Of a DNA stretch of 64,000 nt, positions 1-18,201 are shown one piece after another (within the stretch, counting starts at the first letter, position 1; each line of letters starts with the position of its first letter). This DNA comes from a bacterium. GTDB taxonomy: Bacteria > Patescibacteriota > Minisyncoccia > Phycocordibacterales > UBA9973. Below the pieces are notes generated by a model. It saw nothing but the letters and a program-made list of their open reading frames with translations. It had not been told where the DNA came from and searched no databases. The stretch is taken from assembly GCA_037130655.1 (NCBI GenBank), contig JBAXSP010000003.1:68684-132683 (forward strand), written 5' to 3'. The position numbers and the translations under genes are program-made.

Positions 1-2928
1 GCTTTGGCTGACCTCGCACACTTTACTTTCAACGGTAACGGTACACTTTCACAAGTTACTTTGAAGCGTACAGGTCTATCAACAAGTGCTGACATTTCTA
101 ATGTTTACTTGTTCGATGGAAACATGCGCGTTACTGATGGAGCAAGTGTAAACACAAATGGTGATATCGTTTTCAGTGGTCTAAACATCGCTGTTAACGG
201 AAGTAAGACATTGTCTGTAAAAGCAGATATGGCCGCTTCAAACACAATCTCATCAGTTTCTCTTGGAGTAAGTCTAACAGGTTTCATGGTATCAGGATCT
301 TCTACAGCTAACACTGTAAACATTGCTGGTAACTTACACTATGTTTCAGCTGCACCAAATAACTCTTCATCAGCAACTTTGGGCACACAAACTGTATCAT
401 CTGCATCAATTAATGCAGGTTCAATGCAATACACTGTGTGGTCAGCACCACTCCAAGTTTCTGGACGTGCTGCATGGTTGAAAGGAGCTAACTTCCGCGC
501 AATCGGATCAGCTCCAACTGACGCTGTACAAAACATCAAACTTTATGTTGATGGTACAGCTGTTGGTTCAGCTACATCAGTTAGTGCTAATGGATACGCT
601 TTCTTCGACTTTAGTGCAAACCCAGTCAACTTGACTACAGGTTCACACACAATCGATGTTCGCGGAGATATTCAAAAAGGTTCAAACCGAACTGTACAAT
701 TCTCAATCCAAAACGCATCTGATTTGATGGTTACTGATTCACAACTTGGTACAAACATTGTAGTTACTTCTGCTGTATCAAACGGTGCTGCAGGAACAAT
801 CACTATCAATGCTGGTTCAGTTACAACAACTATCGATCCTTCTTTCCAAACAATGACTAACGTCACTGGTGGAGCAACTAATGCGGTGATCGGTAAGTTC
901 AAACTTCATGCATACGGTGAAGACGTTAAAGTTAACACTCTAAGTGTTACTCCAAACGTTGCAAACGGTGTTGCATCAGGTTCATCTGACCTAAACTCAT
1001 TGAACAACGTTACTTTGTTCTTCAATGGTTCACAAGTTGGATCTTCATTCAACTGGACATCAGGTGCTACTACAGTACAACTAGGATCATCTTTGGTGGT
1101 TCCAGCTGGATCTGACAGTATCCTTGAAGTTCGTGCTGACATTGTTACTTCTGATAACTACAACCTAACATCAGGTACTGTTACAGTATCTCTTGCTGCA
1201 GGAAGTAGTAACGGTCAAGGAATGTCTTCACTATCTACTTCAATTAACGTACCAGCTTCTACAACAGCTACATCAGGTTTGACTATTCAAACAGGATCAC
1301 TTTCTGTTGCTAAGAACACTGCATACGCTAACCAAAGTATTAGTCCAAACACAACTGGAGCAACTATCGGTTCATTCGTTCTTCAAAACCAAAGTTCTTC
1401 AGAATCAGTACGTGTTACTAACTTGGCTGTTGGCCTCGTTCTAACATCTGCAGGTTCTACTAACTACTCAAACTTGAAGACAGATGAAACATCAGGATCA
1501 GGTTCAACACCTATCAATCCTTCAACTGCTAACGCTGGTTCAACTTCATCAAACAACTTCTCTGTTAACTTCACACTTGCTCCTGGAGCAACAAAGGTTA
1601 TCAATGTTATGTCTGATGTAAGTTCAGCTACAGGTTCATTGGCTGTTACTCTTGTTCCTACAGCTCTTGGTGCAAGTTCAAATGTGAACGTTACTCCATC
1701 TTCTGTAACAGGACAAACAATCACTGTACAAACAGCTACATTTGGTACTCCAACTTTGATCAACTCTGCTTCTACAACAGCTCAATACGTTGCTGCTGCT
1801 AACGGAAGTACAGATGGTTCAAAAGCGGAATTCAACCTTACTTCTTCAAACGGTTCAGCAACTGTTTCAGAAGCTAAGTTTGTAGTTCGTGGTACATCAA
1901 CTGTATCAGGTTTGAACACTGTTGCTTCAGTACGCGTTGGTTCACAAACAGCACCAATCGTTCTTGCTACAACAAACTCAACAACACTTTCAACTTCAGC
2001 TGGTTCAGCTACTGCTACAATCAGTTTGACTTCAGCTACAGGTGTTGCTGCAGGTTCAATCCTCTTGATCGATTCAGAACAAATCTTGGTAACAACATAC
2101 TCAAGTGCAAGTTCTGTAAACGTTACTCGTGGTTACAACGGAACAACAGCTGCTACACACTCAAACGGTGCAACAGTTTCTGTTATGAACGGTGTTGCTT
2201 ACTTCACTGGTCTTAACTTGTCTGTTCCAAACAGTACAGCAGGTGTAAACGTTGATGTATACCCAACTTACTCTTCAGTAGGTACAAACGGTGTAACATC
2301 AGGTTCATCATCAACACTTTCATTGTCATACTTGAAATACACTGTTGGTAACTCTACACAAACATCTTGTGTTGCGTCACTATCATGTACAAACAACATG
2401 GCAGAAATCAGTGCTAATGCTATGACTGTTGTTGGCTCAAAACCAACATTCGCAATTGCAACTCCTTCAGCTACATTGTCTGCTGCTTCAACAGCTGCGC
2501 TTGATGTAACTGTTACTGCAGATGCGAAGGGTGATATTACTCTTGTTACACTTCCAATCACTGTTGGTTTGACAGGTGCATCAGTTTCAACTGGTTCTAC
2601 TTCAAACATTGCAGTGTATGCTGGAAATGATTTGAGTACAAACCTTGCTTCTTCTAACACAGCATTCTCTGCTGCTACAGGAAGTTCAAGTACTATCACT
2701 CTTACAAACAGTGGATACCGTATTTCTGCAGGTCAATCTGTAGTATTCCATGTCTATGTAACAATAGTTGGAATGACTTCAGCGGCTTCAGGAAGTAACT
2801 CAATGTCAACTTCACTTTCTACATCTGGCCTAACATGGACAGATACAGCAGGTGGTGGTTCAGCAGGTGCTTTGACATCTTCATTGCTTTACGGATACCC
2901 AACTGGTAACGCAGTTATCCGAAACTAA
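1..2928 (+). CDS. Large Ser/Thr/Gly/Asn-rich secreted surface protein (5' partial, continues upstream of window)
   Basis: 974-codon ORF open to the window edge. Low-complexity beta-rich repeats with dozens of NxS/T sequons and S/T clusters. N-terminal domain pattern recurs in ORF 34629-35357. Confidence 0.7.
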   Translation, partial: ALADLAHFTFNGNGTLSQVTLKRTGLSTSADISNVYLFDGNMRVTDGASVNTNGDIVFSGLNIAVNGSKTLSVKADMAASNTISSVSLGVSLTGFMVSGSSTANTVNIAGNLHYVSAAPNNSSSATLGTQTVSSASINAGSMQYTVWSAPLQVSGRAAWLKGANFRAIGSAPTDAVQNIKLYVDGTAVGSATSVSANGYAFFDFSANPVNLTTGSHTIDVRGDIQKGSNRTVQFSIQNASDLMVTDSQLGTNIVVTSAVSNGAAGTITINAGSVTTTIDPSFQTMTNVTGGATNAVIGKFKLHAYGEDVKVNTLSVTPNVANGVASGSSDLNSLNNVTLFFNGSQVGSSFNWTSGATTVQLGSSLVVPAGSDSILEVRADIVTSDNYNLTSGTVTVSLAAGSSNGQGMSSLSTSINVPASTTATSGLTIQTGSLSVAKNTAYANQSISPNTTGATIGSFVLQNQSSSESVRVTNLAVGLVLTSAGSTNYSNLKTDETSGSGSTPINPSTANAGSTSSNNFSVNFTLAPGATKVINVMSDVSSATGSLAVTLVPTALGASSNVNVTPSSVTGQTITVQTATFGTPTLINSASTTAQYVAAANGSTDGSKAEFNLTSSNGSATVSEAKFVVRGTSTVSGLNTVASVRVGSQTAPIVLATTNSTTLSTSAGSATATISLTSATGVAAGSILLIDSEQILVTTYSSASSVNVTRGYNGTTAATHSNGATVSVMNGVAYFTGLNLSVPNSTAGVNVDVYPTYSSVGTNGVTSGSSSTLSLSYLKYTVGNSTQTSCVASLSCTNNMAEISANAMTVVGSKPTFAIATPSATLSAASTAALDVTVTADAKGDITLVTLPITVGLTGASVSTGSTSNIAVYAGNDLSTNLASSNTAFSAATGSSSTITLTNSGYRISAGQSVVFHVYVTIVGMTSAASGSNSMSTSLSTSGLTWTDTAGGGSAGALTSSLLYGYPTGNAVIRN

Positions 2929-2977
2929 TCGTTTCTGGTAAAACGTTGCAAGACATCATCCTGATGTAAATAGGAAT

Positions 2978-3006
2978 AAAAAACCACCCGAAAGGGTGGT
3001 TTTTTA
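2978..3006 (+). terminator. Rho-independent terminator (CCACCC-GAAA-GGGTGG + T-run)
   Basis: Perfect 6-bp GC-rich stem, GAAA tetraloop and TTTTTT directly after the stop of the large ORF. Confidence 0.75.
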
Positions 3007-3030
3007 TATGGTTTTTGTTACAATGGCTAT

Positions 3031-4365
3031 ATGAAAAATCTTCGAAAAGTATTGATGATCGCGTTATTTGCAACAGCGTTTACTCCAGCAATTTATGCTG
3101 AGAATACACTAACTCCTTCTCAAAATGCCAAAACACTCTTTTTCAGAGGTTGTATAGCACTCGTTTCTGTATTGTTTTCGGTTCTGATGATCAAAAGTGC
3201 TTCATTTAGAAGTGAGGTAAAGGAGCGACTTGTTGTTGTATGGAAACATCCACTGGTTAAAATAACAACACTGTTATACGGAATTCTTTGTGTTAGTACA
3301 ATCTTTGCCTACCATCATTTGCTTGGTTTTTTTGGAGAAGCAGAACGAGATGAAGGTTTCCTCGGTCTTACCTTTTTCTATAGTCTTTTTTTGTACACAA
3401 TACTCTTGTTTCAAAAGAAGGATTGGTATGTTTATTTTGGAACAGCAATCGCAACACAGTTGTTTGTTTTTTCATCAGCAATACATCAATTTGCCAATGG
3501 AACACATCGTACTAATTCAATCGTAGGTAATCCGATTTATTTTGCAACATATGCACTTTGTCTACTGTGTATTAGTTTTGCAATATATTTTCAAGCAAAA
3601 AAAGAAGAATGGTACACTGTCAAAATAATCAGCATTATTTCTATTATTGTTGCTATACTAGAAATCTTTTTGAGTAACACCCGTGCACTCATGTTGGGTG
3701 TTGCGATAGCTGTTCCTGTTGTACTCAGTCTTTTGTTTGTTTATTCAGACACGGTGTTTTCATCTGCAAAAAAAGTATACGCCAAAAGAATCATTGTTGT
3801 GATATTTGCTGCGTTTGTGGTATTTGGGGCAATCTTTTTGTCGACACGTCAGGCAAAAATATGGACACACATACCGGGACTTGATCGTATTGCACAATCA
3901 AGCACCACGGACTCTTCAACCGTCTCTCGTCTTGTTTCTTGGAATATTGCTCTTCATTCAATCAATCCTGTTGAGGCGGGGATTGGCAGAACACTTTTTG
4001 GATATGGTTGGGATAACTATTTCTTTGCATGGCAAAAGTTTTATCAAACAGCATTGTTTGAATACGACACAGCAACATTTGATCGACCGCACAATAAATT
4101 ACTTGATATGTTGGTGATGAACGGAGTATTAGGATTCCTTGCGTATATGTTGTTTTGGTTTTTGTTTATAAAAATACTCGTCCGCTATGCAAAAAAAGAG
4201 CCACTATTTTCTATACTCTTTGTTTCTTGGGCGGTAGCATATTTTGTACAAAATCTTTTTGCGTTTGATAATATTATTACGTGGATTTTATTCTTTGCGA
4301 TCGTTGCATTTGTGACTAACGAAACGCTTGATGCTCAAAAAGAAGTGATAGTTAAAAAACAATAA
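3031..4365 (+). CDS. Wzy_C-family membrane protein (O-antigen ligase / polymerase / PglL-like O-oligosaccharyltransferase family), copy 1
   Basis: About 10 predicted TM segments. Periplasmic-loop motifs SRLVSWNIAL...P.EAGIGRTLFGYG and FDRPHNKLLDMLVMNGVLG match the Wzy_C signature R..W.A..P..G.G...HN..L..G. Extended -10 TGtTACAAT lies 6 nt upstream of the ATG. Confidence 0.75.
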   Translation: MKNLRKVLMIALFATAFTPAIYAENTLTPSQNAKTLFFRGCIALVSVLFSVLMIKSASFRSEVKERLVVVWKHPLVKITTLLYGILCVSTIFAYHHLLGFFGEAERDEGFLGLTFFYSLFLYTILLFQKKDWYVYFGTAIATQLFVFSSAIHQFANGTHRTNSIVGNPIYFATYALCLLCISFAIYFQAKKEEWYTVKIISIISIIVAILEIFLSNTRALMLGVAIAVPVVLSLLFVYSDTVFSSAKKVYAKRIIVVIFAAFVVFGAIFLSTRQAKIWTHIPGLDRIAQSSTTDSSTVSRLVSWNIALHSINPVEAGIGRTLFGYGWDNYFFAWQKFYQTALFEYDTATFDRPHNKLLDMLVMNGVLGFLAYMLFWFLFIKILVRYAKKEPLFSILFVSWAVAYFVQNLFAFDNIITWILFFAIVAFVTNETLDAQKEVIVKKQ

Positions 4366-4366
4366 T

Positions 4367-5254
4367 ATGAAAAACCAAAAAAATACTAAAATAGCAGAAG
4401 AAAAAAACGGGGTAATGAGTATTGTATTTACTTTTATATCAATCTTTTTTTTTGTTGGTTTTATTTATTGGACAGCTGTTCCGTATATACAAATGGTTCA
4501 ATGGAAAAAAGGAATCGGTGCAATGCTTGCGGGAGATGATACAAAATTTCCAAATGATGACTTCATATATCGTCCGTACAATAATTCAATTCAATCAGGT
4601 ATTAGAATCGCTTCTTTCTCGAATGTTTTCAATCAGTATGTTCGTGGTGAAAGAACTAGTTTTACACCGCTATATGACATTGCTTTTAATCGTGAAAAAG
4701 AGTGGGTAGATGCACATCCGTATCGATATGATCATTTGCTCGCTATCGCCAAAGGATATGAGTACAAAGCAAATCTAACAGGTGATACCTCGTATTATCT
4801 ATTGGCAGATGAGTATTATCAAAAAGCACTGGCACTTTGTCCAGAACGACAAGATTTGCTGTATGCGTATTCGCAACACCTTTCAAATACTGGCAAAAAA
4901 CAAGAAGCGATTGATTTGCTTCAAAAAATGCGTAAACAAAATCCTGGTATTGCTCAAACAGGTTATTATTTGGGGACTGTCTATGCCGCAGGGGATAAAA
5001 CAGGATATGATACTGCGTTGACTTATCTAGAAGACTATTTTGCAACAGGTAATCCTATTGTAGATAAAACAGTTATTAAGACATTGTATGAACATTTCTT
5101 TGTTTATTATTATGACAAGAAGGATCTCGGTCGCTTTACTGTTGTCGCTCGAAGAATGATTATTGCAGATCCTTCACAAGCAGATGTGTACAAAAAAATA
5201 TCAGATTATATTGATACGAATAAAACAATGCCGTATCTTAATATTCACAACTAA
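4367..5254 (+). CDS. N-terminally membrane-anchored TPR-like protein, partner of Wzy_C copy 1
   Basis: N-terminal TM helix followed by a VPYIQMVQWKKG motif and a helical-repeat (TPR-like) C-terminal domain. Paralog of 19488-20102. Confidence 0.6.
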   Translation: MKNQKNTKIAEEKNGVMSIVFTFISIFFFVGFIYWTAVPYIQMVQWKKGIGAMLAGDDTKFPNDDFIYRPYNNSIQSGIRIASFSNVFNQYVRGERTSFTPLYDIAFNREKEWVDAHPYRYDHLLAIAKGYEYKANLTGDTSYYLLADEYYQKALALCPERQDLLYAYSQHLSNTGKKQEAIDLLQKMRKQNPGIAQTGYYLGTVYAAGDKTGYDTALTYLEDYFATGNPIVDKTVIKTLYEHFFVYYYDKKDLGRFTVVARRMIIADPSQADVYKKISDYIDTNKTMPYLNIHN

Positions 5255-5255
5255 T

Positions 5256-6101
5256 ATGCTTATTGTACGATTGCAAGGAGGGTTAGGGAATCAACTATTT
5301 CAGTATGCTTTTGCTCGTGCGCTTTCATTGAAACAAAATAAATCAGTTTTTCTTGAAAAATCATTCAAACAACACAAGGTTTTTGGTATCACTCAAAGGG
5401 AGTATGCACTGGATGTTTTTGCTATAGAGGCACAAGTGTTCGAAGAAAATACTTTTCATAAAATAACAAGTGTTATAAAACGGGTTCTCCAAAAAATAGT
5501 TCATATAGAGTGGCGAGGGCTAGAAAAAAGTTTCGCATTCGATCAAAAAATGTTGACTATAAAAGACGGTTATTTTGATGGCTATTGGCAAAGTTATAAA
5601 TATTTTGAACATATAGAAAGTATCATTAAAAATGAACTTGTGTTGAAAGTTATTTCACCTGAAATAAAACAATTTGCTGATCAGATTGAAACAGAGAAAT
5701 CTTTGGCGATACATATTCGCCGAGGAGATTTTGTTAATAATAAAAAACATGAAGTTGTAAAAAATGATTATTATGAGAAAGCGATAAAAATAATCGAATC
5801 AACACATGCGGTAGAACATATCTATGTATTTTCAGATGATATTGCATGGTGTGAAGAACATCTTCATTTTGATTATCCAACAACTTTTGTACCGCTTGCG
5901 TATGAAGGAAAACACGGAGAAGGTCATCTTCATATGATGAGTAAGTGTCAGTATTTCATTATTCCAAATAGTACTTTTGCGTGGTGGGGGGCATGGCTTT
6001 CAAACAGAAAAGATAAAATTGTCATTACTCCAAAAATTTGGCGAAATGATATACTTATTCCACCAGACGATTTACTTCCACCAGATTGGGTTAAAATATA
6101 A
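5256..6101 (+). CDS. GT11-family glycosyltransferase (alpha-1,2-fucosyltransferase-like)
   Basis: GT11 motifs RLQGGLGNQLFQYA, HIRRGDF and IIPNSTFAWWGAWL. Start taken at the internal ATG at 5256, 1 nt after the upstream stop (the ORF-track start 5163 overlaps the upstream gene). Confidence 0.8.
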   Translation: MLIVRLQGGLGNQLFQYAFARALSLKQNKSVFLEKSFKQHKVFGITQREYALDVFAIEAQVFEENTFHKITSVIKRVLQKIVHIEWRGLEKSFAFDQKMLTIKDGYFDGYWQSYKYFEHIESIIKNELVLKVISPEIKQFADQIETEKSLAIHIRRGDFVNNKKHEVVKNDYYEKAIKIIESTHAVEHIYVFSDDIAWCEEHLHFDYPTTFVPLAYEGKHGEGHLHMMSKCQYFIIPNSTFAWWGAWLSNRKDKIVITPKIWRNDILIPPDDLLPPDWVKI

Positions 6102-6104
6102 ATT

Positions 6105-6923
6105 ATGCAAAAACCTCGTATTACAATTATTCTACCTGCTTACAACGGTGCTCGTTGGATTGAAACGGCCATCAAAAGTGCACAAAATCAAACATTTACT
6201 GATTTTGAATTACTCGTTTTTAACGATTGTTCAAAAGATAATACCGAAGAAATCGTACTTCGATTGGCCGAACAAGACAATCGGATTATTTATACAAAGA
6301 ATGAAAAGAATCTTGGCGTTCAGAGAACTCGTAATATTGCGCTCCAAAAAGCTCAGGGTGAATATATAGCTGAAATTGACCAAGACGATGAGTGGATCGA
6401 CAAGGATAAATTACAAAAACAACTTTCGTTTCTAGAAAACAACAAAGACTATGTACTTGTTGGGACCGGTGCAATCATGATTGATGAGAAAGGGAATGAA
6501 ATAGCTCGATATTTGATGCTAGAAACTGATAATCAGATCAAGAATAAACTCTTGCGTGCAAACTGCTTCATTCACTCAAGTGTGATGTATCGCAAAGATA
6601 TCGTAATTGAAATTGGCGGTTATACAATAGAAAAAATGTCTGAAGATCATGACCTTTGGCTTCGCCTCGGAAGACACGGGAAATTTATGAATTTTCCAAC
6701 GTATTCAGTTAAATACCTTTTTACACCGAGTGGATATAACTCTCAAGACAAAATTCTTCGATTGAAACAAAATTTACTTTTTACCAAAGAACATAAAGAT
6801 TTTTACCCAAACTATGTTTATTCAGTTATCTATGGTTGGGCAAAAATTTTATTTACACCAATTTTCAATCTTTTGCCGACAAGGCTAAAAGGATTCTTTC
6901 TTTGGTTGCACAAAAAGATCTAG
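6105..6923 (+). CDS. GT2-family glycosyltransferase
   Basis: ITIILPAYNGARWIETAIKSAQNQTFTDFELLVFNDCSKDNT and a DQDDEW (DxD-like) motif, i.e. GT-A fold. Confidence 0.8.
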   Translation: MQKPRITIILPAYNGARWIETAIKSAQNQTFTDFELLVFNDCSKDNTEEIVLRLAEQDNRIIYTKNEKNLGVQRTRNIALQKAQGEYIAEIDQDDEWIDKDKLQKQLSFLENNKDYVLVGTGAIMIDEKGNEIARYLMLETDNQIKNKLLRANCFIHSSVMYRKDIVIEIGGYTIEKMSEDHDLWLRLGRHGKFMNFPTYSVKYLFTPSGYNSQDKILRLKQNLLFTKEHKDFYPNYVYSVIYGWAKILFTPIFNLLPTRLKGFFLWLHKKI

Positions 6924-7901
6924 TTATTTTACCGTGCCTAATTTAATATATTCTTCGCACGTATTTTTAATATGTTCTTCAATAGAAAGTATGTTTTTGA
7001 AACCAATTGTTTTTTCAATTTTTTCTTGTGACAAAATACTTTGATTGGTCAAAGCTTTGAGTCTTGCGAAGGTCAAAGGGTTTTTCTTTCTTAAAATAAA
7101 ACATACAACTAGTAGTACGGTACTTATTCCAAAAGCTATAAAATAGGGAATCGTGTATGTTTTTCTTGTGATTTTTGGTGTGGCATTTTTGACAATCTCA
7201 TCCATTTTTTTGTATGCAACTGCATTGCTTAGGATATAGATATTACCAAACGAGCTATCGGTTTTTCCGAGTAGTTCTAATGCGCGAATCACTTCGTTTA
7301 TATGGACGATATTATAATATCCAGTACCAATATTTTTATATAAACCACTTCTCATACTTTGGATTAGCTGGAGAAAACTACCACCTTCTTTGTTGTTTCC
7401 GGTGCCAAATATAGTACTAGGACGCAAAATATGGGCCTTTAGACCCTGTTTGATTGCTTGGACGACAACTTGCTCGGCTCTGTATTTTGATCGGCCGTAA
7501 GCATTGTGTGGATGTGGAATGGTTTCTTCTGTAACAATCTTGTCTTTTGTTTGTCCGGTAATTCCGGCACTTGAAAGATATATGAGTGTACAGTTATTTT
7601 TCATTGCTTGAGCTACAATATTTTTTGTCCCGAGTACATTCACTCGTTCAAGTTCTTCTGTATTGTAAATTGATCCCGCGCAATGATAGATAATACGCAC
7701 ATCATTTGGGATTTCAAAAGAATCGGTAATATCAGCTATAATAAAACTCACCCGATCGTTATTTTCAAATAGGGGAGATTTTTTTCTAGATAAAATATAT
7801 ACAAAACAACCTTCGTCCAATAAAGCTGTTACGAGTTTTGCTCCAACATATCCGGTACCACCCGTAACAAGGATTTTTTTGTTTTCCGAAATATGTTCCA
7901 T
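6924..7901 (-). CDS. NAD-dependent epimerase/dehydratase family protein with C-terminal TM segment
   Basis: Rossmann motif LVTGGTGYVGAKLV. Short-chain dehydrogenase (SDR) catalytic YxxxK motif (YGRSK). Hydrophobic C-terminal helix. Confidence 0.75.
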   Translation of the reverse strand: MEHISENKKILVTGGTGYVGAKLVTALLDEGCFVYILSRKKSPLFENNDRVSFIIADITDSFEIPNDVRIIYHCAGSIYNTEELERVNVLGTKNIVAQAMKNNCTLIYLSSAGITGQTKDKIVTEETIPHPHNAYGRSKYRAEQVVVQAIKQGLKAHILRPSTIFGTGNNKEGGSFLQLIQSMRSGLYKNIGTGYYNIVHINEVIRALELLGKTDSSFGNIYILSNAVAYKKMDEIVKNATPKITRKTYTIPYFIAFGISTVLLVVCFILRKKNPLTFARLKALTNQSILSQEKIEKTIGFKNILSIEEHIKNTCEEYIKLGTVK

Positions 7902-7904
7902 ATA

Positions 7905-8573: not shown

Positions 8574-10348
8574 TTGAATAATTCTTTGTATTTATCTTTA
8601 TTCTCCTTAATATACCGTGGTAGACCCTTTTCATCAATATGATAAGCAAAGTTTCTTCCAGCGACATCTTGATTATTTTGTAATCGTTCAGTTATCTGGT
8701 TTTTTGTTGAATCATTGTTTAGTTCTTGGTGTGAGAAGGACTCGATTTTTTCTTTGACCCGATTCTCGCCACCTTGATAGGTGAAATGCCAGCCACCATT
8801 GTTTACAAAAGTATACGGTGTCTTTCTCTTTGTGCGAAGATGATTGAGACAGTTGTTTTTGATGTTTTTGTACTTTGTCGCCAAAGTGCCAGTCCAGGCT
8901 TCATTCGATTTGTTGTTCAAATAATAGCAATAGACTGCTTGTCTGAATTTATAGATGTCATCTTTTTGGTAATCAATTACTATTTCTGGATTCCAGATTT
9001 CATCAAGGTCAGAGACAAAACAGAAATCATTATCAGAAAGATTTGTTAATGCGTGCTTCACAGATTCCTTTTCATAGAAATCACGCAAGAAATGATTCAT
9101 TCCTTTTGGAATATTATCTGAAGTTAGTGTTTGTTTCAAAATTGTTTTTTCAAGTTGAGATATACTGCCTTCATTTAGTCGTTCTTGTGCGTCAGTAAAA
9201 TCTTGCAACGGATGCTCTATGACATAGTGAATAATTTTGTGTTCAAATTGTTTGAAACGTTCTTTGTTTTTCTCATAAAACAATTCTTTTGGTTTACCTG
9301 AGTGGGTGAGTGTGGATTCAACGATAACGAAATAATCAACATATGGATCAAGAATGTTAAGTCGGATATCAAGTAATTCAAGTTCGTTGAAGAAATTAAA
9401 AATATCATAGATTTTTATCGTTTTACGATAATTGGCAATCTCTGCTATTTTTTTCTTTGAAGGATTCTTATAGGTTTTAGATAGGAGTGCATTTTTTTTG
9501 ATTAAAAGAATGTTTTTGATTTTGCGATATATTTTTTGAATCAAAATTTTGGTATTCATAAAGATTTTTTTGTATAAGATATTTGCAAGAATAGAAGCAA
9601 ATAAGAAATATAACTTTCTACTGATCGGTTCGGGTTTTGTTTCTGTATTTATAAAATCTTCATCAAGTGGTACGAGAATTTTTGGGTTGAACTCGAAATT
9701 GCTCATCATAAGCGTAAACATAGTTCGTTCAATCATGTGTGTTTCTGCTGGTTCCTGACAATGAGACATAAAGAGTCGTAGATTTTGATAGACTACTTTC
9801 GGTACTTTCAAAATACGTTCTTTTGGTGCAATGAAATCTCCTCCAGGAGAAAAACGGACATAGAGTGGAATTACCGGATCTTTGTATAAAAAACGAATGA
9901 AGTCATTGTGGTTGTGGAAATATTTATGTTTCCAGTATTTGAAATACCAACTACTGTTGATTTCACATAAACCGCCATCTGGAGACAGGTATGCGACAGG
10001 GAATATAGTGTCGTATGTTTTCCAGTCTTCAAGTGGTGTATACCAAGTATTGTTCATTACCTTGTCGAATGTTTCTTTTCGAACATGACGTGGAAAAGAC
10101 CAGCCTTTGGCAAAGATAATACAATCAGGAAGGTTGTCGTAATTGTCGATGATATATGTAAAATATTCATATGAATTATATCCGTTGTTTGAGCCAGGTA
10201 ATACTTTTTGAAAATCAATTGTTTCTGGTATTGCCACTTTGTCACTGCGTTTATTATAAATAACATAGTTGTCTGTATATTCAGGCACCCACGAAAGATC
10301 ATTATTGAAATTTGATATAACCAAGAAGTTTTTTTGGATTTTTTTCAT
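8570..10348 (-). CDS. Two-domain glycosyltransferase: unknown N-terminal domain plus GT17-like C-terminal domain
   Basis: The C-terminal IYDIFNFFNELELLDIRLNILDPYVDYFVIVES matches the bacterial GT17 (MGAT3-like) signature. The N-terminal ~240 aa has no motif I recognise. A K-rich hydrophobic linker separates the two. Confidence 0.55.
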   Translation of the reverse strand: MKKIQKNFLVISNFNNDLSWVPEYTDNYVIYNKRSDKVAIPETIDFQKVLPGSNNGYNSYEYFTYIIDNYDNLPDCIIFAKGWSFPRHVRKETFDKVMNNTWYTPLEDWKTYDTIFPVAYLSPDGGLCEINSSWYFKYWKHKYFHNHNDFIRFLYKDPVIPLYVRFSPGGDFIAPKERILKVPKVVYQNLRLFMSHCQEPAETHMIERTMFTLMMSNFEFNPKILVPLDEDFINTETKPEPISRKLYFLFASILANILYKKIFMNTKILIQKIYRKIKNILLIKKNALLSKTYKNPSKKKIAEIANYRKTIKIYDIFNFFNELELLDIRLNILDPYVDYFVIVESTLTHSGKPKELFYEKNKERFKQFEHKIIHYVIEHPLQDFTDAQERLNEGSISQLEKTILKQTLTSDNIPKGMNHFLRDFYEKESVKHALTNLSDNDFCFVSDLDEIWNPEIVIDYQKDDIYKFRQAVYCYYLNNKSNEAWTGTLATKYKNIKNNCLNHLRTKRKTPYTFVNNGGWHFTYQGGENRVKEKIESFSHQELNNDSTKNQITERLQNNQDVAGRNFAYHIDEKGLPRYIKENKDKYKELFK

Positions 10349-10355
10349 ACTAGTT

Positions 10356-11342
10356 TTACAGTGCTTGTCGGATTATTTTGTATAATTTTCGAACCTTGCG
10401 TAACATATTTCTTTGAAATAGAAACAATCGTTTTTTTTCATAGATTACTGGTGTTGTATCCCTTTCTCCTCGTTTATAGTCTTTCATATCAGCGATACAT
10501 TCTTCGTATGACTGTAGTTGAAAAGTTCGATCCATATATTTCCATCCACTGGTAATATTGTATCCGCAACCCCAATAACCGTCTGAGGTATTCCATTGTG
10601 ACCAGTATTTCGGTGCAATGCAGTATTTCAAGTTTTCATTCAACCAAGCAGGGAACCAAGCAAAACTAGAATTTGAAAGAATTAAATAGTGAGCATTTTT
10701 TACAACGACATAATCTTTTGCAATATTAAAATGAAGCACATCAAAAGCAGGGAAGAACTTTTTGGCAGTGATCACATCATCAGTAATGACAATAAAGCGA
10801 AAGTCAGGATTGATTTTGCGCATATGAGTGACTGCGTTGTCCCAATACTCTTGCGGAAGAAATACGTGAGGAATACCAACATATTCACCACCACGAAAAT
10901 TGATTACGCAAATGTGTTCATTTGCGTAATCAAAACATTCATACGTATCTTTTACTTTCAACCACTCACGAATTTCATCTTTGTGTGACAAGATGTATTG
11001 CTCGTCTTGCATGATACCGTCGATTTTGGTGTTGTCAGCTACGTTCATCAAGTCTGCATCGTAAGTACGAATATCAACACCAGTTTTTGGATGGAGGAGT
11101 TGTTTTTCTCGGTAATAATGAGTTATTCCTTCAGGTAGTGTGATAGCAGGTCCTCCTTCAGGACCAGTACCACCAATTACTTGTTCGCCGAAATCTAGAC
11201 TCATGAAATCCAAACATTTGAATTTTTGCGGATTCATGATGCCGTATTTATACCCTTTATTTTTGGCAATTACTCTTGTCACCACATAGCACCACAGTTG
11301 GTTTCCAAGTCCTTGTCCGTTGTATATTTCGGTGACAATCAT
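10356..11342 (-). CDS. GT11-like glycosyltransferase, second copy
   Basis: N-terminal GQGLGNQLW and C-terminal LILSNSSFAWFPAWL mirror GT11 motifs I and III of ORF 5256-6101. Confidence 0.6.
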   Translation of the reverse strand: MIVTEIYNGQGLGNQLWCYVVTRVIAKNKGYKYGIMNPQKFKCLDFMSLDFGEQVIGGTGPEGGPAITLPEGITHYYREKQLLHPKTGVDIRTYDADLMNVADNTKIDGIMQDEQYILSHKDEIREWLKVKDTYECFDYANEHICVINFRGGEYVGIPHVFLPQEYWDNAVTHMRKINPDFRFIVITDDVITAKKFFPAFDVLHFNIAKDYVVVKNAHYLILSNSSFAWFPAWLNENLKYCIAPKYWSQWNTSDGYWGCGYNITSGWKYMDRTFQLQSYEECIADMKDYKRGERDTTPVIYEKKRLFLFQRNMLRKVRKLYKIIRQAL

Positions 11343-11345
11343 AAT

Positions 11346-13040
11346 TTATATTTTAATGTGTAATTTTCTAAGAATCTTTTTTAGTGGCCAGAAAATCTGA
11401 GGAAGAACTAATTTACTTCCATGGAAACCAAACGGTTTCCAAACAGATTCTTTACAATCGGTTTCGTGAGAAAATCGTGCAGCTACATCTACTGGAGCAA
11501 ATTTAATACCTGCATCTTCTAAAGTCTTGCGGTGATACACACAAATCAAACCATCTTCGTGGAAAAATCCAGTACCATTATCAGTAAATGGTAAATTAAG
11601 TTCATTGAGGATGTTCAACAGCTTTTTACTTCGAAGGGTAAAACCTCCATTACCAACACGCACATTCACACCTTCGTTGGTGAAGTGAACATTTGGTGCC
11701 CAGGGTGCGCCAATGTAATCATATTTCAAAAAGTCTGGATCCCATTTTTGCGGACGGAGAATATACCCATCATTTTGTACAAGCATTACATAATCTGTTT
11801 GTATATAATCAGCAAGTTTGTACGCAACAAAATGGTTATATCCTTTGTAGTCGAGTTTTTCGATATTGATAACCTTGATACCTAGATCATCGAGATTTAT
11901 TTTTTCATGCGTAATCAAAATCGCTTCTGCGAAATCAATTCCTTTCATACTTTCGCGAAGTGCATGAATGGTGTCATTGATTCGAGTGCAAGCAACTGCA
12001 ACAAGGGTGACAGTAGGTAATTGTATTTTTTGATTAGTTGTTTTCCAAAAACTATAAATATTTTTGTGGATTTCGTACTTCATATTTTTTACTTGGCGTT
12101 CAGGTTGTTTCTCTGCCCAGTCAAACATCTTACGAATCGTTTTTTCGATATTTGTATCATCAGAAAAGGCTAATAAATTTTTTGCTTTGTCATGATTACA
12201 ATAAGCATCCTTGACTTCAAGGCGAGGTTCTTTGTGTTCGATAGTTGTCTTATGTCCTTTTTCTGCGCCAATTTTTTGTACAAGCTCAGCGATATCTTTG
12301 AGTTTAAATTCTTGGTCTGCTCCAATATTAAAAATCTCACCATCAAAACCATCCATCAATTTTTCGAATGGCTCCATATAAAAAGAGATATCAGAAAAAG
12401 CTCGAGTTTGTTCGCCGTCACCGTAAATAAGTATTGGTTCACCTGCGAGTGTTCGGCGTATCCAAATACCGATAACATTTCGATATCGGTCCCAAATATT
12501 TTGATTTACCCCAATAACGTTGTGTGGTCGGATGATGGTGTATCTTAGTCCGAATTGATCGTGCGCTTGTTTTATATCCATTTCGATGGCGTATTTTGCA
12601 ATACCATATGGATCTGCTGGTTTCGGTAACATTTCTTCGGTGAATGGAGGAGTGCTATGTCCGTATACTGCCATTGATGAAGTAAAGATGAGTTTTTTGA
12701 CATCATGCACAACACAATTATTGATAACATTGGCTGAACAGATGAGATTGTTGGTGTAATTGAAATTTCGAATAAACGGAGAAAGTCCTTCAGCTGCATA
12801 TGCAGCAAAGTGATACACATACTCAGGTTTATGTTTTGCGAAAATGCTGGCTATTTTTTCAGCATCAAAAAGATCTACTTGATAAAAAGTACCTGCATCA
12901 ATGATTCTACTGTCCACAAAATCTTTGTATCCACCAAAGAGACTATCGATACCGATAACCTCATGACCTTTGTCGAGCAGATGTTTTGAAAAATGACTCC
13001 CAAGTAGACCTGCAACACCTGTAACTAAAACTTTACTCAT
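11346..13040 (-). CDS. Fusion protein: NAD-dependent sugar epimerase/dehydratase (N-terminal) plus uncharacterised ~240-aa C-terminal domain
   Basis: N-terminal VLVTGVAGLLGSHFSKHLL Rossmann motif and SDR YxxxK. The C-terminal half (from ~aa 330) has no catalytic motif I recognise. Confidence 0.7.
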   Translation of the reverse strand: MSKVLVTGVAGLLGSHFSKHLLDKGHEVIGIDSLFGGYKDFVDSRIIDAGTFYQVDLFDAEKIASIFAKHKPEYVYHFAAYAAEGLSPFIRNFNYTNNLICSANVINNCVVHDVKKLIFTSSMAVYGHSTPPFTEEMLPKPADPYGIAKYAIEMDIKQAHDQFGLRYTIIRPHNVIGVNQNIWDRYRNVIGIWIRRTLAGEPILIYGDGEQTRAFSDISFYMEPFEKLMDGFDGEIFNIGADQEFKLKDIAELVQKIGAEKGHKTTIEHKEPRLEVKDAYCNHDKAKNLLAFSDDTNIEKTIRKMFDWAEKQPERQVKNMKYEIHKNIYSFWKTTNQKIQLPTVTLVAVACTRINDTIHALRESMKGIDFAEAILITHEKINLDDLGIKVINIEKLDYKGYNHFVAYKLADYIQTDYVMLVQNDGYILRPQKWDPDFLKYDYIGAPWAPNVHFTNEGVNVRVGNGGFTLRSKKLLNILNELNLPFTDNGTGFFHEDGLICVYHRKTLEDAGIKFAPVDVAARFSHETDCKESVWKPFGFHGSKLVLPQIFWPLKKILRKLHIKI

Positions 13041-13816
13041 ATAATTGATCGAAATTTTCTAATAAGTTTTTTTATATAAAACATTCCAACGACGCGTAAT
13101 CTGTAAGGAAAAGAGATGAAGGTTTTACCGTATTTTCGAAGACAGTAACGATATTCTTCATAGCGTATCTGTGTCGTTGCTTCGGTATTTGTTACCTGAT
13201 GCTCTCCTAATCCAATGGATACTGTTATTTCGTTTAGAATTTTAAGTTTACCAAATCTATCATAACATTTTCTATAGTAATCACAATCCATTAACCATGC
13301 TAAATTGTTGTCAAATAAGGGGATATTTTGATTTTTTAGCGTTAAAACAGAAGGGGCTCCAATGGTATTTTTACCTAGATATATATTTGAATTATAGGTG
13401 GGGTAGTGTGTTTTGGAAAAAGATGTGCCGTTGGTAGTGTGATTACAAGCAGTAACCAACCAGTGATCTTTTTCTGTGTCGAAGTTTTTTACGATTTTTT
13501 CTAAAGAATCATTTCCATATAAAAAATCATCTTGGAACAATATTTTAATTAGTGTGCCAGTGGCTTTTGTCATCGCGTTGTTTATATTGGCAGATGAACT
13601 TCCAAGGTGTTCAGTGTTTTTATGATAATGAATCTGTAATTGGTTTCGATATGTTTCGCAAAATTCCTGTATTTTTGTATCTTTTGAATGATCAGAAATG
13701 ACAACATCAAAATCTTTGAATGATTGTTTCAGTAGTGCTTCAAAACTTCGTTGCAAGAAAGACGTTCCTTCTCCATGCATTTCATATGTGGGGATGCAGA
13801 TGCTTATTTTGGCCAT
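13037..13816 (-). CDS. GT2-family glycosyltransferase
   Basis: ISICIPTYEMHGEGTSFLQRSFEALLKQSFKDFDVVISDHS is a GT-A N-terminal signature. Confidence 0.75.
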   Translation of the reverse strand: MAKISICIPTYEMHGEGTSFLQRSFEALLKQSFKDFDVVISDHSKDTKIQEFCETYRNQLQIHYHKNTEHLGSSSANINNAMTKATGTLIKILFQDDFLYGNDSLEKIVKNFDTEKDHWLVTACNHTTNGTSFSKTHYPTYNSNIYLGKNTIGAPSVLTLKNQNIPLFDNNLAWLMDCDYYRKCYDRFGKLKILNEITVSIGLGEHQVTNTEATTQIRYEEYRYCLRKYGKTFISFPYRLRVVGMFYIKKLIRKFRSII

Positions 13817-15252
13817 AGTGTTGTTTGTAAATCTTTTAGAATAGGTTCTTTAAGAAGTAATAATGTTGATAGATAGCAGATCAGGGATATCAATATAATT
13901 ACTACCACCGGTAATTTCAGTGCTTGCAATAGCAAAATTAGAATACTCATGAGTATTGTTGAAAACAATATCTTTTTTATAGTAAGTGGAATACTGTGTT
14001 CAGTACTCATCACTTTCCATGATAATAAAGTGATAACGATTGTTGACAATAGTGTTGCTACTGCTGATCCTGTTGCGCCGAACGTAGGAATTAGTAAAGC
14101 ATTAAGAATAATATTGATACCAACACCAGTAATATAAATGGGTGCTAGTACGCGTTGTTTGTTGTATGAAAAAATTGCATTTGATAGTGAAATTAATGGG
14201 AATGAAAAAATAAGCATAAACATCAGCGTGTACATAATAGGGACCGCTTCAATATATCCAGCGCCGAAAATTAATAAAATTAATTCTTTTGATAACAACA
14301 TACCACCAAAAGCGATTGGTAATCCAACAAGCATTGTCATTGAGATTGTTTTTCCAAGGGTAAAAGAAAAATGATTTTTATCCGTGTGTGCAAGTCGTGA
14401 CAGAATAGGGAAAGTTGCGGTGGCAATCATTGATGGAATGATCAAAATAAATTGCTGGATTCGTTGAACCGATGCATACAAGCCAATTTCATCAGCATTT
14501 TTCCATAAACCAAGCATGTAAATATCAGTGTTTCCGAGGATTGTTCCAATCAAAGCAACAAATGCAAATGGCCATGTTATTTGCATGATTTTTTTTGTAA
14601 GACGTATATTAATTGGTACCCAAAAATCTTTGATATATTTTTTAAGCATTGCAATAACTGCAATTGTTCCAATGGCACTGCCGATTGCGTACGCAATCGC
14701 TATTGATTGTGCGGTCGGTTTATTTTTGATCAGCAGTATTCCTATTATCAATATCAATCCATTAACAATTGTTTTAATAAACATTTCCCACTCCATCTTT
14801 TCATAAGCACGGTTGAGGGAGAATCCAGTTTCTCGTATTGCGTCAAAAAACATAACAACCGCAATCAATGGAAATAACACATTAGCTTCAGGGATATGTG
14901 AAATAGTTGGGCCAATAATAACAATTAAAAACCCACTTATAATAAGTAGTATTGTTTTTATAAAAAGTACTGTAGCAATAAATGATTGATGATCTTCTTT
15001 TTTTTGAATTATTTCTCGAGTCAGTAACCCGCCAAGCCCAATATCAGAAAATATCATAACTAGTCCGCCGATTGATATTGCATATGAAAAAACTCCCCAA
15101 CCAGCACTGCCTAATAATCTGGCTGCATAAATAATCAATCCCATTTTCAAAAGACGTCCTGTTGCTTCACTTGCAATTAACCAAAAAGTATTTTTGGTGA
15201 CAGTTTGTTTTGAACTTGTATTATGAAAAAGAAATTTTTTTATTCTCTGCAT
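13804..15252 (-). CDS. Wzx-type oligosaccharide flippase (MOP/polysaccharide biosynthesis protein family)
   Basis: 482 aa, ~12-14 TM helices, typical Wzx hydrophobic pattern. Location within the glycan cluster. Confidence 0.7.
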   Translation of the reverse strand: MQRIKKFLFHNTSSKQTVTKNTFWLIASEATGRLLKMGLIIYAARLLGSAGWGVFSYAISIGGLVMIFSDIGLGGLLTREIIQKKEDHQSFIATVLFIKTILLIISGFLIVIIGPTISHIPEANVLFPLIAVVMFFDAIRETGFSLNRAYEKMEWEMFIKTIVNGLILIIGILLIKNKPTAQSIAIAYAIGSAIGTIAVIAMLKKYIKDFWVPINIRLTKKIMQITWPFAFVALIGTILGNTDIYMLGLWKNADEIGLYASVQRIQQFILIIPSMIATATFPILSRLAHTDKNHFSFTLGKTISMTMLVGLPIAFGGMLLSKELILLIFGAGYIEAVPIMYTLMFMLIFSFPLISLSNAIFSYNKQRVLAPIYITGVGINIILNALLIPTFGATGSAVATLLSTIVITLLSWKVMSTEHSIPLTIKKILFSTILMSILILLLQALKLPVVVIILISLICYLSTLLLLKEPILKDLQTTLWPK

Positions 15253-15258
15253 AGATAA

Positions 15259-16554
15259 TTAATGAGTGAAAATAATTTGAATTGTTTTGATGATAATTCC
15301 AAGATCGATAAAGAGCGTGTGATTTTTGATATAGAACAAATCGTATTCGAATTTTTCACGAGAGTCCATTATTGAACGAGCATAACGGAATTTGATTTGT
15401 GCCCAACCGGTAAACCCTGGTTTGACGGTATGTCGAAGAAAATAATAGGGGATTTCTTTTTCGAGTCCTTCAACAAATTCAGGTCGTTCCGGTCGTGGTC
15501 CGACAAGTGTAATATCACCACGTAAAATATTTATCATCTGAGGTATTTCATCGATATGAGTTTTTCGAATTATTTTACCTACTTTCGTAATACGATTATC
15601 ATTTTGCGATGCCCATTGCGCACCTGTATTTTCTGCTGATCCGTCTGCGGAAAGTACAATCATGCTACGAAATTTGTATATTGTAAAAAGGTTCTTTTGT
15701 TTGCCTACACGAGTTTGTTTTAGGAATATTTGTTTTCTGTCGTTTATAAAAATGGCAATAGCTGTAATGATTGTAATAGGTAGTGTGATAAGTATGACAG
15801 AGGAAGCAAAAACAATATCGATTAATCGTCTGATAGTTTTTTCAAGAATATTTTCGCGTTGTTCCAATATTTTTATTGCAAGACCATCATCTATCAAAGA
15901 AACAGGGAGCTTAGACAAAATCATTTGAAATGCTTTTTTGATATCGAGATATTGATATGACGATTGCGAAAGTTGCATCAAGTCAGCGGTGTGAATAGTT
16001 TGTATGTAGACAATCGTATCTATTTTTTCTGATGATTGTAGTAATGCATCAAAATCAGTAAACGTTCCTTTGTAGGCATATCCAATGTGCGGATTTTGCT
16101 TGATATTTTCAATAAGGATTTTTGATTCGGGTGTTTCTCCAATGAAGGCAATGTTGTTTTTGAAATTTTTAGCAAAAACGTAATAGAACAAACTTCTCCA
16201 GAGAAATACCAATCCTGCAAAGAGTGCTTGTGTAATCAACAGGTTTGTTTTGGGTGCGATTTGGAATGAAAGAAAGTAAAACAACGTAATACCAGCAAGG
16301 GTGCTAGTCCCAAGTGCCAAAAGAAACTGTCTGAGATTAGTGAAATTTGGTTTGAGTGACGTTGCTTCGTATACATTGAAGATATAGAAAATCACAAAAA
16401 TAAGTCCACCCCAAATACTAAATGGTACAAGGTGTGGTTGCACCATTTGCGGTGCATCATTTATTCCAAAGCGAATAATCAGCATCAAATATCCAGCACC
16501 ACAGAGCATTAGTGCATCACCGAGAAAGAGAAGTGTTTTACGCCAATTTTTCAT
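15259..16554 (-). CDS. Polyprenyl-phosphate glycosylphosphotransferase (WbaP/CpsE-type initiating sugar transferase)
   Basis: C-terminal bacterial sugar transferase domain: KQTRVGKQKNLFTIYKFRSM...DEIPQMINILRGDITLVGPRPERPEF. N-terminal TM bundle. Confidence 0.85.
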   Translation of the reverse strand: MKNWRKTLLFLGDALMLCGAGYLMLIIRFGINDAPQMVQPHLVPFSIWGGLIFVIFYIFNVYEATSLKPNFTNLRQFLLALGTSTLAGITLFYFLSFQIAPKTNLLITQALFAGLVFLWRSLFYYVFAKNFKNNIAFIGETPESKILIENIKQNPHIGYAYKGTFTDFDALLQSSEKIDTIVYIQTIHTADLMQLSQSSYQYLDIKKAFQMILSKLPVSLIDDGLAIKILEQRENILEKTIRRLIDIVFASSVILITLPITIITAIAIFINDRKQIFLKQTRVGKQKNLFTIYKFRSMIVLSADGSAENTGAQWASQNDNRITKVGKIIRKTHIDEIPQMINILRGDITLVGPRPERPEFVEGLEKEIPYYFLRHTVKPGFTGWAQIKFRYARSIMDSREKFEYDLFYIKNHTLFIDLGIIIKTIQIIFTH

Positions 16555-17692: not shown

Positions 17693-18157
17693 ATGTCAAA
17701 TAATAAAAAAATACTTAGTACTATTGCACTCATTGTCATTATTATACTTCTTGCTTTTTTTGTTTGGAAACAAACAAAACAAACAGAGACTTCTATTGAT
17801 ACAAATATATCAATAGAATCAACAGAGGATGTTGATGTTGCAACAACAACCACTTCAGTTAAACCAGTAACAATAAGTTATCAAAAGGCACTTGAAATAT
17901 ATAAGGATAAGCGCATCCAGCTAGGCGCTACAACTGTCTGTACTGCTACACCAAATAATGTGACTTACAAAAACGGGACAAGTATCATGATAGACAATCG
18001 TTCAACAATTGCTCGAACAATCAAAATCGGAAGCACCTATACCGTCAAACCATATGGTTTCAAAATTATCAAACTGACAAGTAAAACACTTCCAGTTAAA
18101 TGGTATATGGATTGTAATAAACAGCAAAATGTTGCAACAATCTTGCTTCAAAAATAA
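17693..18157 (+). CDS. Hypothetical membrane-anchored protein
   Basis: ORF with N-terminal TM helix and no recognisable domain. Confidence 0.45.
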   Translation: MSNNKKILSTIALIVIIILLAFFVWKQTKQTETSIDTNISIESTEDVDVATTTTSVKPVTISYQKALEIYKDKRIQLGATTVCTATPNNVTYKNGTSIMIDNRSTIARTIKIGSTYTVKPYGFKIIKLTSKTLPVKWYMDCNKQQNVATILLQK

Positions 18158-18166: not shown

Positions 18167-18201
18167 CAAAAACCCGAAAGGGTTTTTGTTTTTGTTTTTT
18201 T
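18167..18201 (+). terminator. Rho-independent terminator (AAAAACCC-GAAA-GGGTTTTT + T-run)
   Basis: Hairpin with T-tract. Near-identical in layout to the terminator at 2978. Confidence 0.7.

Follow-up and report, generated by a model that had tools for sequence, protein, structure and literature searches.

A 64,000-nucleotide stretch of contig JBAXSP010000003.1 (assembly GCA_037130655.1, positions 68,684 to 132,683; hereafter the window), from a bacterium of the Patescibacteriota, begins inside the gene of a very large surface protein, here called BIG, and continues into an island of glycan genes that includes two Wzy_C-type enzymes. Is a glycan built at this locus and attached to a protein, and is BIG that protein? 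Patescibacteria, or candidate phyla radiation (CPR) bacteria, are ultra-small, mostly uncultured episymbionts that attach to their hosts via the cell surface, and to our knowledge the principal surface-layer protein of the CPR group Paceibacteria has so far not been molecularly identified. The genome behind the window is low in GC (0.34-0.41), and three features mark it as one of the CPR/Paceibacteria: an enlarged 23S rRNA gene unlinked to 16S, a type IV pilus cluster, and close homologues in metagenome-assembled genomes of Nomurabacteria, Yonathbacteria and Staskawiczbacteria. A sequence-only reading had proposed a protein glycosylation locus at 1-16554. Our answer has two levels. The general proposition, that an undecaprenyl-pyrophosphate (Und-PP)-linked oligosaccharide would be flipped by Wzx and passed to some extracytoplasmic acceptor by a WaaL-fold enzyme combining Wzy_C and tetratricopeptide repeat (TPR) modules, has much the stronger support. 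The specific one, that the locus directs an slg-type (S-layer-glycosylation-like) en bloc O-glycosylation of BIG and, probably through a second Wzy_C-TPR pair, of other envelope proteins, we hold to be on balance probable. We lean towards it because the Wzy_C and TPR arrangement resembles that of slg loci and the placement beside the putative target resembles that of proteobacterial O-oligosaccharyltransferases (O-OTases).

The Wzy_C enzymes and the glycan pathway

WzyC1 (3031-4365, + strand), the candidate O-OTase, is a Wzy_C family protein (PF04932, 49.8 bits against a cutoff of 31.7). Its AlphaFold2 (AF2) model (predicted local distance difference test score, pLDDT, 86.7) has 12 long transmembrane (TM) helices and a large loop at 276-355 between TM9 and TM10, and a Foldseek search of the PDB with this model gave WaaL as the sole significant match (7tpg_B, E 5.5e-6, probability 1.00, TM-score 0.55-0.59). 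Sequence searches against PDB chains, with the single protein or with a profile freed of the TPR part, returned nothing significant; when fused members were put into the profile, TPR matches overwhelmed the result. R106, R160, R218, R300, D351, H354 and G365 are invariant in the family alignment, R218, R300 and H354 being so in alignments of 23 and of 51 sequences. H354 lies in the context H-N-x9-G-x-x-G, which we take to be a WaaL-family motif. Judged from order and spacing and not from a residue-level superposition, R218, R300 and H354 probably correspond to the triad of R215, R288 and H338, required in Escherichia coli WaaL, and of R224, R298 and H349, conserved in PglL (PMC3643930). Because of the modelled WaaL fold and the invariant Arg-Arg-His triad, the Wzy_C proteins are likely ligase- or oligosaccharyltransferase-like, which supports the earlier proposal that they transfer a lipid-linked oligosaccharide.

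WzyC1 is followed by TPR295 (4367-5254, +), a 295-aa protein with a single N-terminal TM helix and a TPR-like domain that has weak TPR matches in Pfam and weak similarity to the TPR regions of BcsC and PrsT. A fused 734-aa protein (P0123) is 58% identical to WzyC1 in its N-terminal part and 56% identical to the whole of TPR295 over residues 439-734. These alignments show that WzyC1 and TPR295 are the two halves, here encoded separately, of an enzyme that also exists as a single Wzy_C-TPR protein of ~730 aa, TPR295 being its detached C-terminal half. An exhaustive HMMER scan recovered 2507 representatives of the Wzy_C family at 50% identity (E<=1e-30), among which forms of ~430 aa and of ~720-790 aa are interleaved, so that split and fused enzymes are both common; at E<=1e-3, the family counts 12,770 representatives in CPR genomes. 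A profile search of a set of 5.8 billion proteins reached no named, characterised relatives. The TPR domain of TPR295 probably faces outward (extracytoplasmic), since WaaL has an N-in/C-in topology and a Lys-rich N-terminus precedes the single TM helix of TPR295.

A second Wzy_C gene lies downstream of the island proper: WzyC2 (18218-19498, +; PF04932, 55.4 bits against 31.7) shares 31% identity with WzyC1 along its entire sequence (E 9e-61), and the next gene, unk204 (19488-20102, +), encodes a shortened TPR295 homologue (24% identity to TPR295 residues 13-211, E 8e-9). By homology, the two (18218-20102) form a second, paralogous split pair. Because WzyC2 is a paralogue of WzyC1 and is followed by this shortened homologue, the functional unit ends at about 20102, directly before rplJ/rplL, rather than at 16554; the sequence-only reading, right about the genes up to that point, had missed the TPR partner and its counterpart.

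The island consists of two tightly packed convergent blocks, 3031-6923 (+) and 16554-6924 (-). Gene families were assigned with Pfam and NCBIfam, and all the genes that had been listed for the island, together with the second Wzy_C gene, were found in their places and in the families that had been named for them. The set is predicted to encode the assembly of a lipid-linked oligosaccharide, with a WbaP-class initiator, glycosyltransferases (GTs), a methyltransferase, two short-chain dehydrogenase/reductase (SDR) enzymes and a Wzx flippase. Synthesis would begin at the cytoplasmic face, where the initiating WbaP/WcaJ-class polyprenyl-phosphate hexose-1-phosphate transferase (15259-16554, -; PF02397 Bac_transf, E 1.8e-60; TIGR03025, 302.7 bits against a cutoff of 295.6) would load hexose-1-phosphate onto undecaprenyl phosphate. 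A complex oligosaccharide would then be built by two GT2 enzymes (6105-6923, +, PF00535, E 1e-33; 13037-13816, -, PF00535, E 1.7e-12), by a GT11-family enzyme (5256-6101, +; PF01531, E 3.9e-28; a 281-aa gene call taken from the source contig, the mechanical open reading frame (ORF) starting at 5163), by a divergent GT11-like enzyme (10356-11342, -; PF01531, 28.8 bits against 23.9, weak yet above the cutoff) and by a two-domain protein with a GT17-like domain (8570-10348, -; PF04724, E 7.9e-20, residues 306-405), perhaps helped by the DUF3431 and DUF5672 domains; the GT domains of the island number 5-7. Modified sugars would be provided by the two SDR enzymes, an epimerase/dehydratase/reductase that reaches none of the NCBIfam equivalog cutoffs (6924-7901, -; PF01370, E 7e-29) and a GalE-like protein that scores 140 bits with the GalE model, below its cutoff of 262 (11346-13040, -; PF01370, E 1e-46), while a class I methyltransferase (7905-8573, -; Methyltransf_24, E 1.5e-10) would cap or decorate the glycan. 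The Und-PP-oligosaccharide would next be flipped to the outer face by Wzx, of the MOP superfamily (13804-15252, -; PF01943 Polysacc_synt, E 1e-33). WzyC1 and its membrane-anchored TPR partner would finally move it en bloc, presumably unpolymerised, onto Ser/Thr residues of an extracytoplasmic protein, the prime candidate being the adjacent BIG with its peptidoglycan anchor, Ig-like domains and disordered Thr/Pro linker. The second pair at 18218-20102 would probably serve another set of acceptors.

Two details of the sequence-only reading have to be revised here. It had seen two proteins in which a glycan enzyme is fused to an unknown domain; the fusions are real, and both domains match Pfam families, namely DUF3431 at the N-terminus of the GT17-like protein (PF11913, E 5.5e-10) and DUF5672 in the GalE-like SDR (PF18922, E 2.1e-20), a PDB sequence search finding no relatives of either domain. 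The glycan had also been called probably fucosylated, which is not supported: the best scores of the SDRs are far from the equivalog cutoffs, with 60 bits for Fcl (cutoff 500) and 29.6 bits for Gmd (cutoff 415). NCBIfam recognises neither Gmd nor Fcl/WcaG, the enzymes of GDP-L-fucose synthesis, among the island SDRs, and their genes could lie elsewhere in the genome; what still points to fucose is the GT11 family membership of one transferase (PF01531, E 3.9e-28) and the second, weak match. In the same window, at 29577-30835, PAP2 phosphatase and BacA/UppP genes (undecaprenyl-pyrophosphate recycling) adjoin FtsW; they are relevant to pathways that depend on undecaprenyl phosphate and are probably general cell-wall housekeeping genes.

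The surface protein BIG and its locus in relatives

The window holds the C-terminal 974 aa of BIG (1-2928, +; ORF 4-2928, open at the 5' end of the window). The 5' end was recovered by an exact-match look-up on a 16-kb contig (the source contig, L001), where the complete gene spans L001:4732-8097 and encodes 1121 aa, residues 1-147 lying upstream of the window. The protein had been described as an S/T/N-rich secreted protein of more than 974 aa. This composition is real (29.8% S+T and 7.7% N in the windowed part), whereas most of the chain turns out to be folded beta domains: a signal peptide, a PG_binding_1 domain and a Thr/Pro linker, GGSTTPTTPTTPTQTGP, precede about 950 residues rich in S, T, N, A and G, which in the AF2 model (pLDDT 82.7, all-beta) form about eight beta-sandwich domains. 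Disorder in the model is confined to the signal peptide and to linker residues 111-123. Foldseek returned generic tandem Ig-like matches (alpha-2-macroglobulin, integrins, mastigoneme) and no match to a specific S-layer fold.

BIG has at least 857 homologues among the 8000 candidates scored, of uniform length (about 1050-1200 aa), most of them anchored by PF01471 (PG_binding_1) and a few by SLH domains (P0099, P0104). An alignment of 29 diverse members shows a mean column identity of 38% and many invariant Gly, Asp and Asn positions. BIG is a conserved, wall-anchored surface protein and a reasonable candidate for an S-layer or surface fibril protein. N-glycosylation of BIG was considered and rejected: N-x-S/T sequons are not enriched (31, against 24.8 +/- 4.0 in shuffled sequences) and no STT3/PglB was seen in the window. 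The D(S/T)(A/I/L/V/M/T) motif of Bacteroidota occurs only twice in BIG and is uninformative there. As a separate observation, a conserved protein of ~265-290 aa is encoded between FtsK and BIG, in the orientation of BIG, at nearly all loci (L001:3214-4011, outside the window on its upstream side). This protein, of which one homologue gives a weak HTH_DeoR match, may be a regulator of the BIG gene.

How tightly is BIG linked to Wzy_C? We collected 79 BIG loci from species-representative genomes and searched their ORFs with the window proteins and the Wzy_C profile, 70 loci being informative. The order of genes is fixed: RecA, a small protein, FtsK (-), an unknown protein of ~270 aa (+), BIG (+), a variable interval, rplJ and rplL. 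In 24 of the 70 loci, a Wzy_C gene starts within 2 kb after the stop codon of BIG, always as the first or second downstream gene, and two additional ones at 5.6-6.2 kb make 26 loci within 10 kb; the upstream flanks hold none across 593 kb. About a third of the species-level relatives (24/70) thus carry Wzy_C, alone or with TPR, immediately downstream of BIG, evidence that the sequence-only reading did not have. Three architectures occur: (i), a split Wzy_C and TPR pair, co-directional and directly after BIG; (ii), a fused Wzy_C-TPR gene on the other strand, which often follows immediately on a gene of the beta-lactamase family and, (iii), a fused Wzy_C-TPR gene, co-directional, just before rplJ. 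In two loci (L068 and L082), the interval contains a small TPR protein and a fused Wzy_C-TPR between BIG and rplJ and no recognised GT genes, L082 having in addition one 397-aa ORF of no assigned family; in a third (L069), Wzy_C lies between BIG and rplJ and a homology search with the window glycan genes found no match there.

Homologues of the window glycan genes are present in 14 of the 26 Wzy_C-positive loci, against 4 of the 44 negative ones, and the content of the island varies from locus to locus: GT4s in L002, methyltransferases in L009, a CapD/FnlA-like dehydratase in L053, and window-like GT11/GT17/GT2 sets in L007, L016 and L027. The last three contain homologues of the DUF3431 and GT17-like protein, and the second GT11 of the window is 64% identical to its homologue in L016 and 54% to that in L027. 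Thr/Pro-rich BIG linkers are somewhat longer in Wzy_C-positive loci (Mann-Whitney U test, p 0.003, kinship ignored), a hint only.

The clearest picture of how the locus evolves comes from a close relative. Compared with the source contig, locus L009 has an FtsK that is 97% identical at the amino acid level, upstream genes that are 89% identical in DNA, and 85% DNA identity across the first ~185 codons of BIG, a part that encodes signal peptide, anchor and linker. Identity then collapses, the breakpoint lying inside the BIG gene at about codon 185 (L001:4115-5288 against L009:4257-5425). Past this point, Wzy_C is 32% and the TPR partner 30% identical, the island genes differ, and BIG is 54% identical overall. 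Because identity collapses within BIG and everything downstream is replaced while anchor and linker are kept, the exposed BIG domains, the Wzy_C-TPR pair and the island must have been exchanged as one block. Across loci, the identity of BIG to the window copy correlates with that of Wzy_C (rho 0.58, n=21, p 0.006, kinship ignored), again only a hint, and is uncorrelated with that of FtsK (rho -0.15, n=46).

Other genes of the variable interval deserve mention. A Beta-lactamase2-family serine hydrolase is encoded after the island (16604-17632, +; PF13354, E 6.8e-33); genes of this family lie directly downstream of BIG in seven loci (L033, L037, L038, L041, L051, L059, L071) and directly beside the fused Wzy_C-TPR gene in L037, L041, L051 and L059. 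Could the hydrolase act in the wall anchoring or processing of BIG? The next gene, unk154 (17693-18157, +), is followed by a terminator-like hairpin (18167-18188), and its product is small, anchored in the membrane and equipped with a T-rich linker. The family to which it belongs (~150-170 aa; N-terminal TM anchor, Thr-rich linker and ~90-aa domain; no Pfam match) has one to three copies in the BIG-rplJ interval of many loci (e.g. L017, L021, L024, L056 and L060); its members may be further glycosylation targets or a second acceptor, or accessory proteins of the surface layer. In loci that have no glycan island, other very large surface proteins occupy the interval, such as a 1132-aa protein with Bact_surface_Ig-like domains (L003:18068-21466) and a 1438-aa protein with DUF5018 (L004:14698-19014), the latter sharing its interval with a Y1 transposase gene.

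Two further acceptors that had been named from the window find no support. The ORF at 34629, taken for a relative of BIG, shows no relationship to it that BLASTP can detect (E 0.04). The pilins, encoded over 30 kb away in the type IV pilus cluster (45.6-56.6 kb), are of the ordinary type IV kind, S+T making up 18-20%, and linkage of pilin and Wzy_C genes was seen in no locus. Elsewhere in the window, the 23S rRNA gene (23475-27043) is 3569 nt long against a model of 2925 nt, an insertion of ~640 nt. It contains a group-I-intron-like match (26505-26702; E 1e-8, the 42.6 bits falling short of the gathering score of 50) and an ORF of no Pfam match (24703-25455, -); the 5S gene follows at 27172-27278, and there is no 16S gene beside it. 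Two divergently oriented tRNA-Ser genes lie at 41885-42128, the second of which (42041-42128) has an unusual ACT anticodon according to ARAGORN, either a mis-call or a real A34 tRNA.

Objections and alternative readings

Several observations weigh against an slg-type O-glycosylation of BIG. (i), in the AF2 model BIG is a well-folded beta protein, unlike acceptors of the mucin-like disordered type. (ii), a strong intrinsic-terminator-like hairpin (2976-3007, +; 14 bp stem, GAAA loop, T-run) separates BIG from WzyC1, so strict co-transcription is improbable, and BIG is probably transcribed separately. (iii), linkage is not obligatory, since the search at each locus found no Wzy_C near BIG in 44 of the 70. 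(iv), the Thr/Pro linker of BIG is conserved between L001 and L009 although their Wzy_C enzymes are merely 32% identical, and an acceptor site in the linker would therefore not account for the swapping of the enzyme. (v), the linkage and correlation statistics take no account of phylogeny. (vi), the O-OTase role proposed for WzyC1 derives from its sequence and its modelled fold, which do not suffice to tell a protein O-OTase from a ligase with a lipid or glycan acceptor, or to tell it reliably from some Wzy polymerases. (vii), the PglL-specific motif PglL_A (PF15864) has no match in WzyC1 or WzyC2 (E<=0.01). PilO is an O-OTase although it has no PglL_A motif either (PMC3643930).

What else could the locus be? 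It might be an ordinary Wzx/Wzy polysaccharide locus (capsule, exopolysaccharide or secondary cell-wall polymer), in which the flipped repeat units are polymerised by one Wzy_C paralogue, and attachment of the product to wall or lipid falls to the second paralogue or to an enzyme encoded elsewhere; BIG would then be a neighbour because envelope genes lie together here, or because the polymer has a part in anchoring it. The WbaP-Wzx-GT set is indeed the canonical repeat-unit pathway, there are two Wzy_C paralogues to share the tasks, and the Pfam Wzy_C family also includes some polymerases. A few BIG homologues (P0099, P0104) carry SLH domains, which in Firmicutes bind secondary cell-wall polymers. 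TPR domains are moreover described, in a reference cited in PMC2943079, as scaffolds for polysaccharide export, and TPR295 is weakly BcsC- and PrsT-like. Against this reading, 5-7 GT domains suit one long oligosaccharide as well as a repeat unit, and the PG_binding_1 domain of most BIG homologues needs no accessory polymer. Parts expected of a polymer pathway were not found, the Pfam families of the ORFs scanned across the 64-kb window including no Wzz/polysaccharide co-polymerase (PCP), CpsCD, LCP ligase or OPX export component; the polytopic Wzy candidates seen in island and window are the two ligase-like Wzy_C proteins. Both paralogues carry the Arg-Arg-His triad of ligases and oligosaccharyltransferases, WaaL is the sole significant structural match, and a polymerase would be odd beside BIG in loci where Wzy_C-TPR persists with no recognised glycan-synthesis genes (L068 and L082; L069 by homology search). 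We consider a polysaccharide locus unlikely, though it is the strongest of the competing explanations.

Alternatively, the Wzy_C-TPR proteins could be true ligases that act, like WaaL, on a non-protein acceptor, either a membrane glycolipid or lipoglycan or the peptidoglycan of a cell that has no outer membrane. The closest solved structure is that of WaaL, the lipopolysaccharide (LPS) O-antigen ligase, the PglL-specific motif was not detected, and a family as large as this one in CPR genomes (12,770 representatives, E<=1e-3) would suit a housekeeping envelope function. No genes for a lipid A-core or a lipoglycan anchor are linked to the locus, however, and the cassette swaps along with the exposed domains of BIG; the TPR domain, if extracytoplasmic as we suppose, and the tight target-adjacent placement match protein-directed enzymes such as WsfB, WsaA/WsaB and the PglL/pilin pairs. 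This makes a non-protein acceptor improbable, and we infer that a protein rather than a lipid or a wall polymer receives the glycan. Coincidental adjacency, with the BIG-rplJL interval acting as a recombination hotspot that gathers any accessory surface genes, agrees with the high variability of the interval, with the other large surface proteins, the transposase and the unk154 copies found there in other loci and with the absence of Wzy_C from 44 of 70 loci, but is very hard to reconcile with a Wzy_C gene in first or second place after BIG in 24 species-level loci and three architectures, with its retention in the two loci with no recognised GT genes (L068 and L082), and with a breakpoint inside BIG that makes the exposed part of the protein a member of the swapped unit.

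Significance and comparison with known systems

The slg-type glycosylation that we favour would be a known mechanism, parallel to that of the Firmicutes slg loci; novelty lies in the phylum and the candidate acceptor family, in how large the Wzy_C-TPR family is among CPR genomes, and in the way the cassette behaves. The literature that we searched describes neither protein glycosylation in CPR/Patescibacteria nor the BIG family, and searches on CPR with O-antigen ligase or S-layer protein found nothing relevant. If this reading is true, it names a conserved major surface protein for the CPR and a candidate O-OTase family with thousands of members, and it points to a hypervariable surface cassette that would serve in metagenomes as a marker of how strains diversify at their surface; WzyC1 and TPR295 with BIG would be a concrete pair for heterologous glycosylation in E. 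coli. It is tempting to speculate further, if only tentatively, that BIG is the principal surface-layer protein of Paceibacteria, that the Wzy_C-TPR proteins, a large family specific to CPR, are its dedicated O-OTases, and that exposed BIG domains, oligosaccharyltransferase and hypervariable island form one cassette, switching by recombination, that sets the surface identity of the episymbiont, hence its host attachment and phage susceptibility.

The closest parallel is with the slg loci of Geobacillus stearothermophilus NRS 2004/3a (sgsE, wsaA-wsaP) and Paenibacillus alvei CCM 2051T (spaA, wsfB, wsfP) (PMC2943079). There, a glycan island is linked to the structural gene of a surface layer, as that of the window is to BIG, a surface-layer candidate, and both islands encode a WbaP-like initiator (WsaP/WsfP in slg loci), GTs and a methyltransferase (an O-methyltransferase in slg loci, Methyltransf_24 here). 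The predicted S-layer O-OTase WsfB has, like PglL, a C-terminal TPR motif, whereas WsaB has none and a separate TPR protein, WsaA, is encoded by the adjacent, preceding gene (PMC2943079); the same alternation between fused and neighbouring modules is met in the split pairs of the window and the fused enzymes of its relatives. The likeness of WzyC1 to WsaB and WsfB is one of described domain arrangement. The window differs in its phylum (Patescibacteria/Paceibacteria instead of Firmicutes), in an acceptor candidate of an unrelated, PG_binding_1-anchored family whose S-layer role is itself a candidate one, in its two Wzy_C/TPR pairs and in the use of Wzx for export, G. stearothermophilus having a Wzm/Wzt ABC transporter.

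WaaL of Cupriavidus metallidurans (PDB 7TPG) and the WzyC1 model both have 12 TM helices and, in a catalytic loop, Arg and His; sequence identity is only 14%, and the window differs by the TPR partner and by envelope genes that bear no sign of an LPS or lipid A-core acceptor. The proteobacterial PglL, TfpO (PilO) and PglS also belong to the Wzy_C superfamily and have the conserved Arg-Arg-His. Some Acinetobacter strains have two oligosaccharyltransferases, one target-specific and one general, which parallels the two pairs of the window. These enzymes move Und-PP-glycans en bloc after flipping by Wzx, as we propose for the window, and O-OTase genes are typically found beside the target gene, 21 of 31 pglL homologues adjoining pilin genes (PMC3643930). 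Unlike in this group, PF15864 is undetected in the window, the large TPR module is a separate polypeptide, and the neighbouring target would be a wall-anchored multi-Ig protein rather than a pilin. Finally, the exchange between L001 and L009 recalls Clostridioides difficile, in which S-layer cassettes switch and one cassette type contains a glycosylation cluster: in both cases, a surface-layer gene, or its candidate counterpart, and a linked glycosylation cluster are recombined between near-identical backbones. The protein families are different, and in the Paceibacteria the breakpoint falls inside the surface-protein gene, so that the anchor domain is kept.

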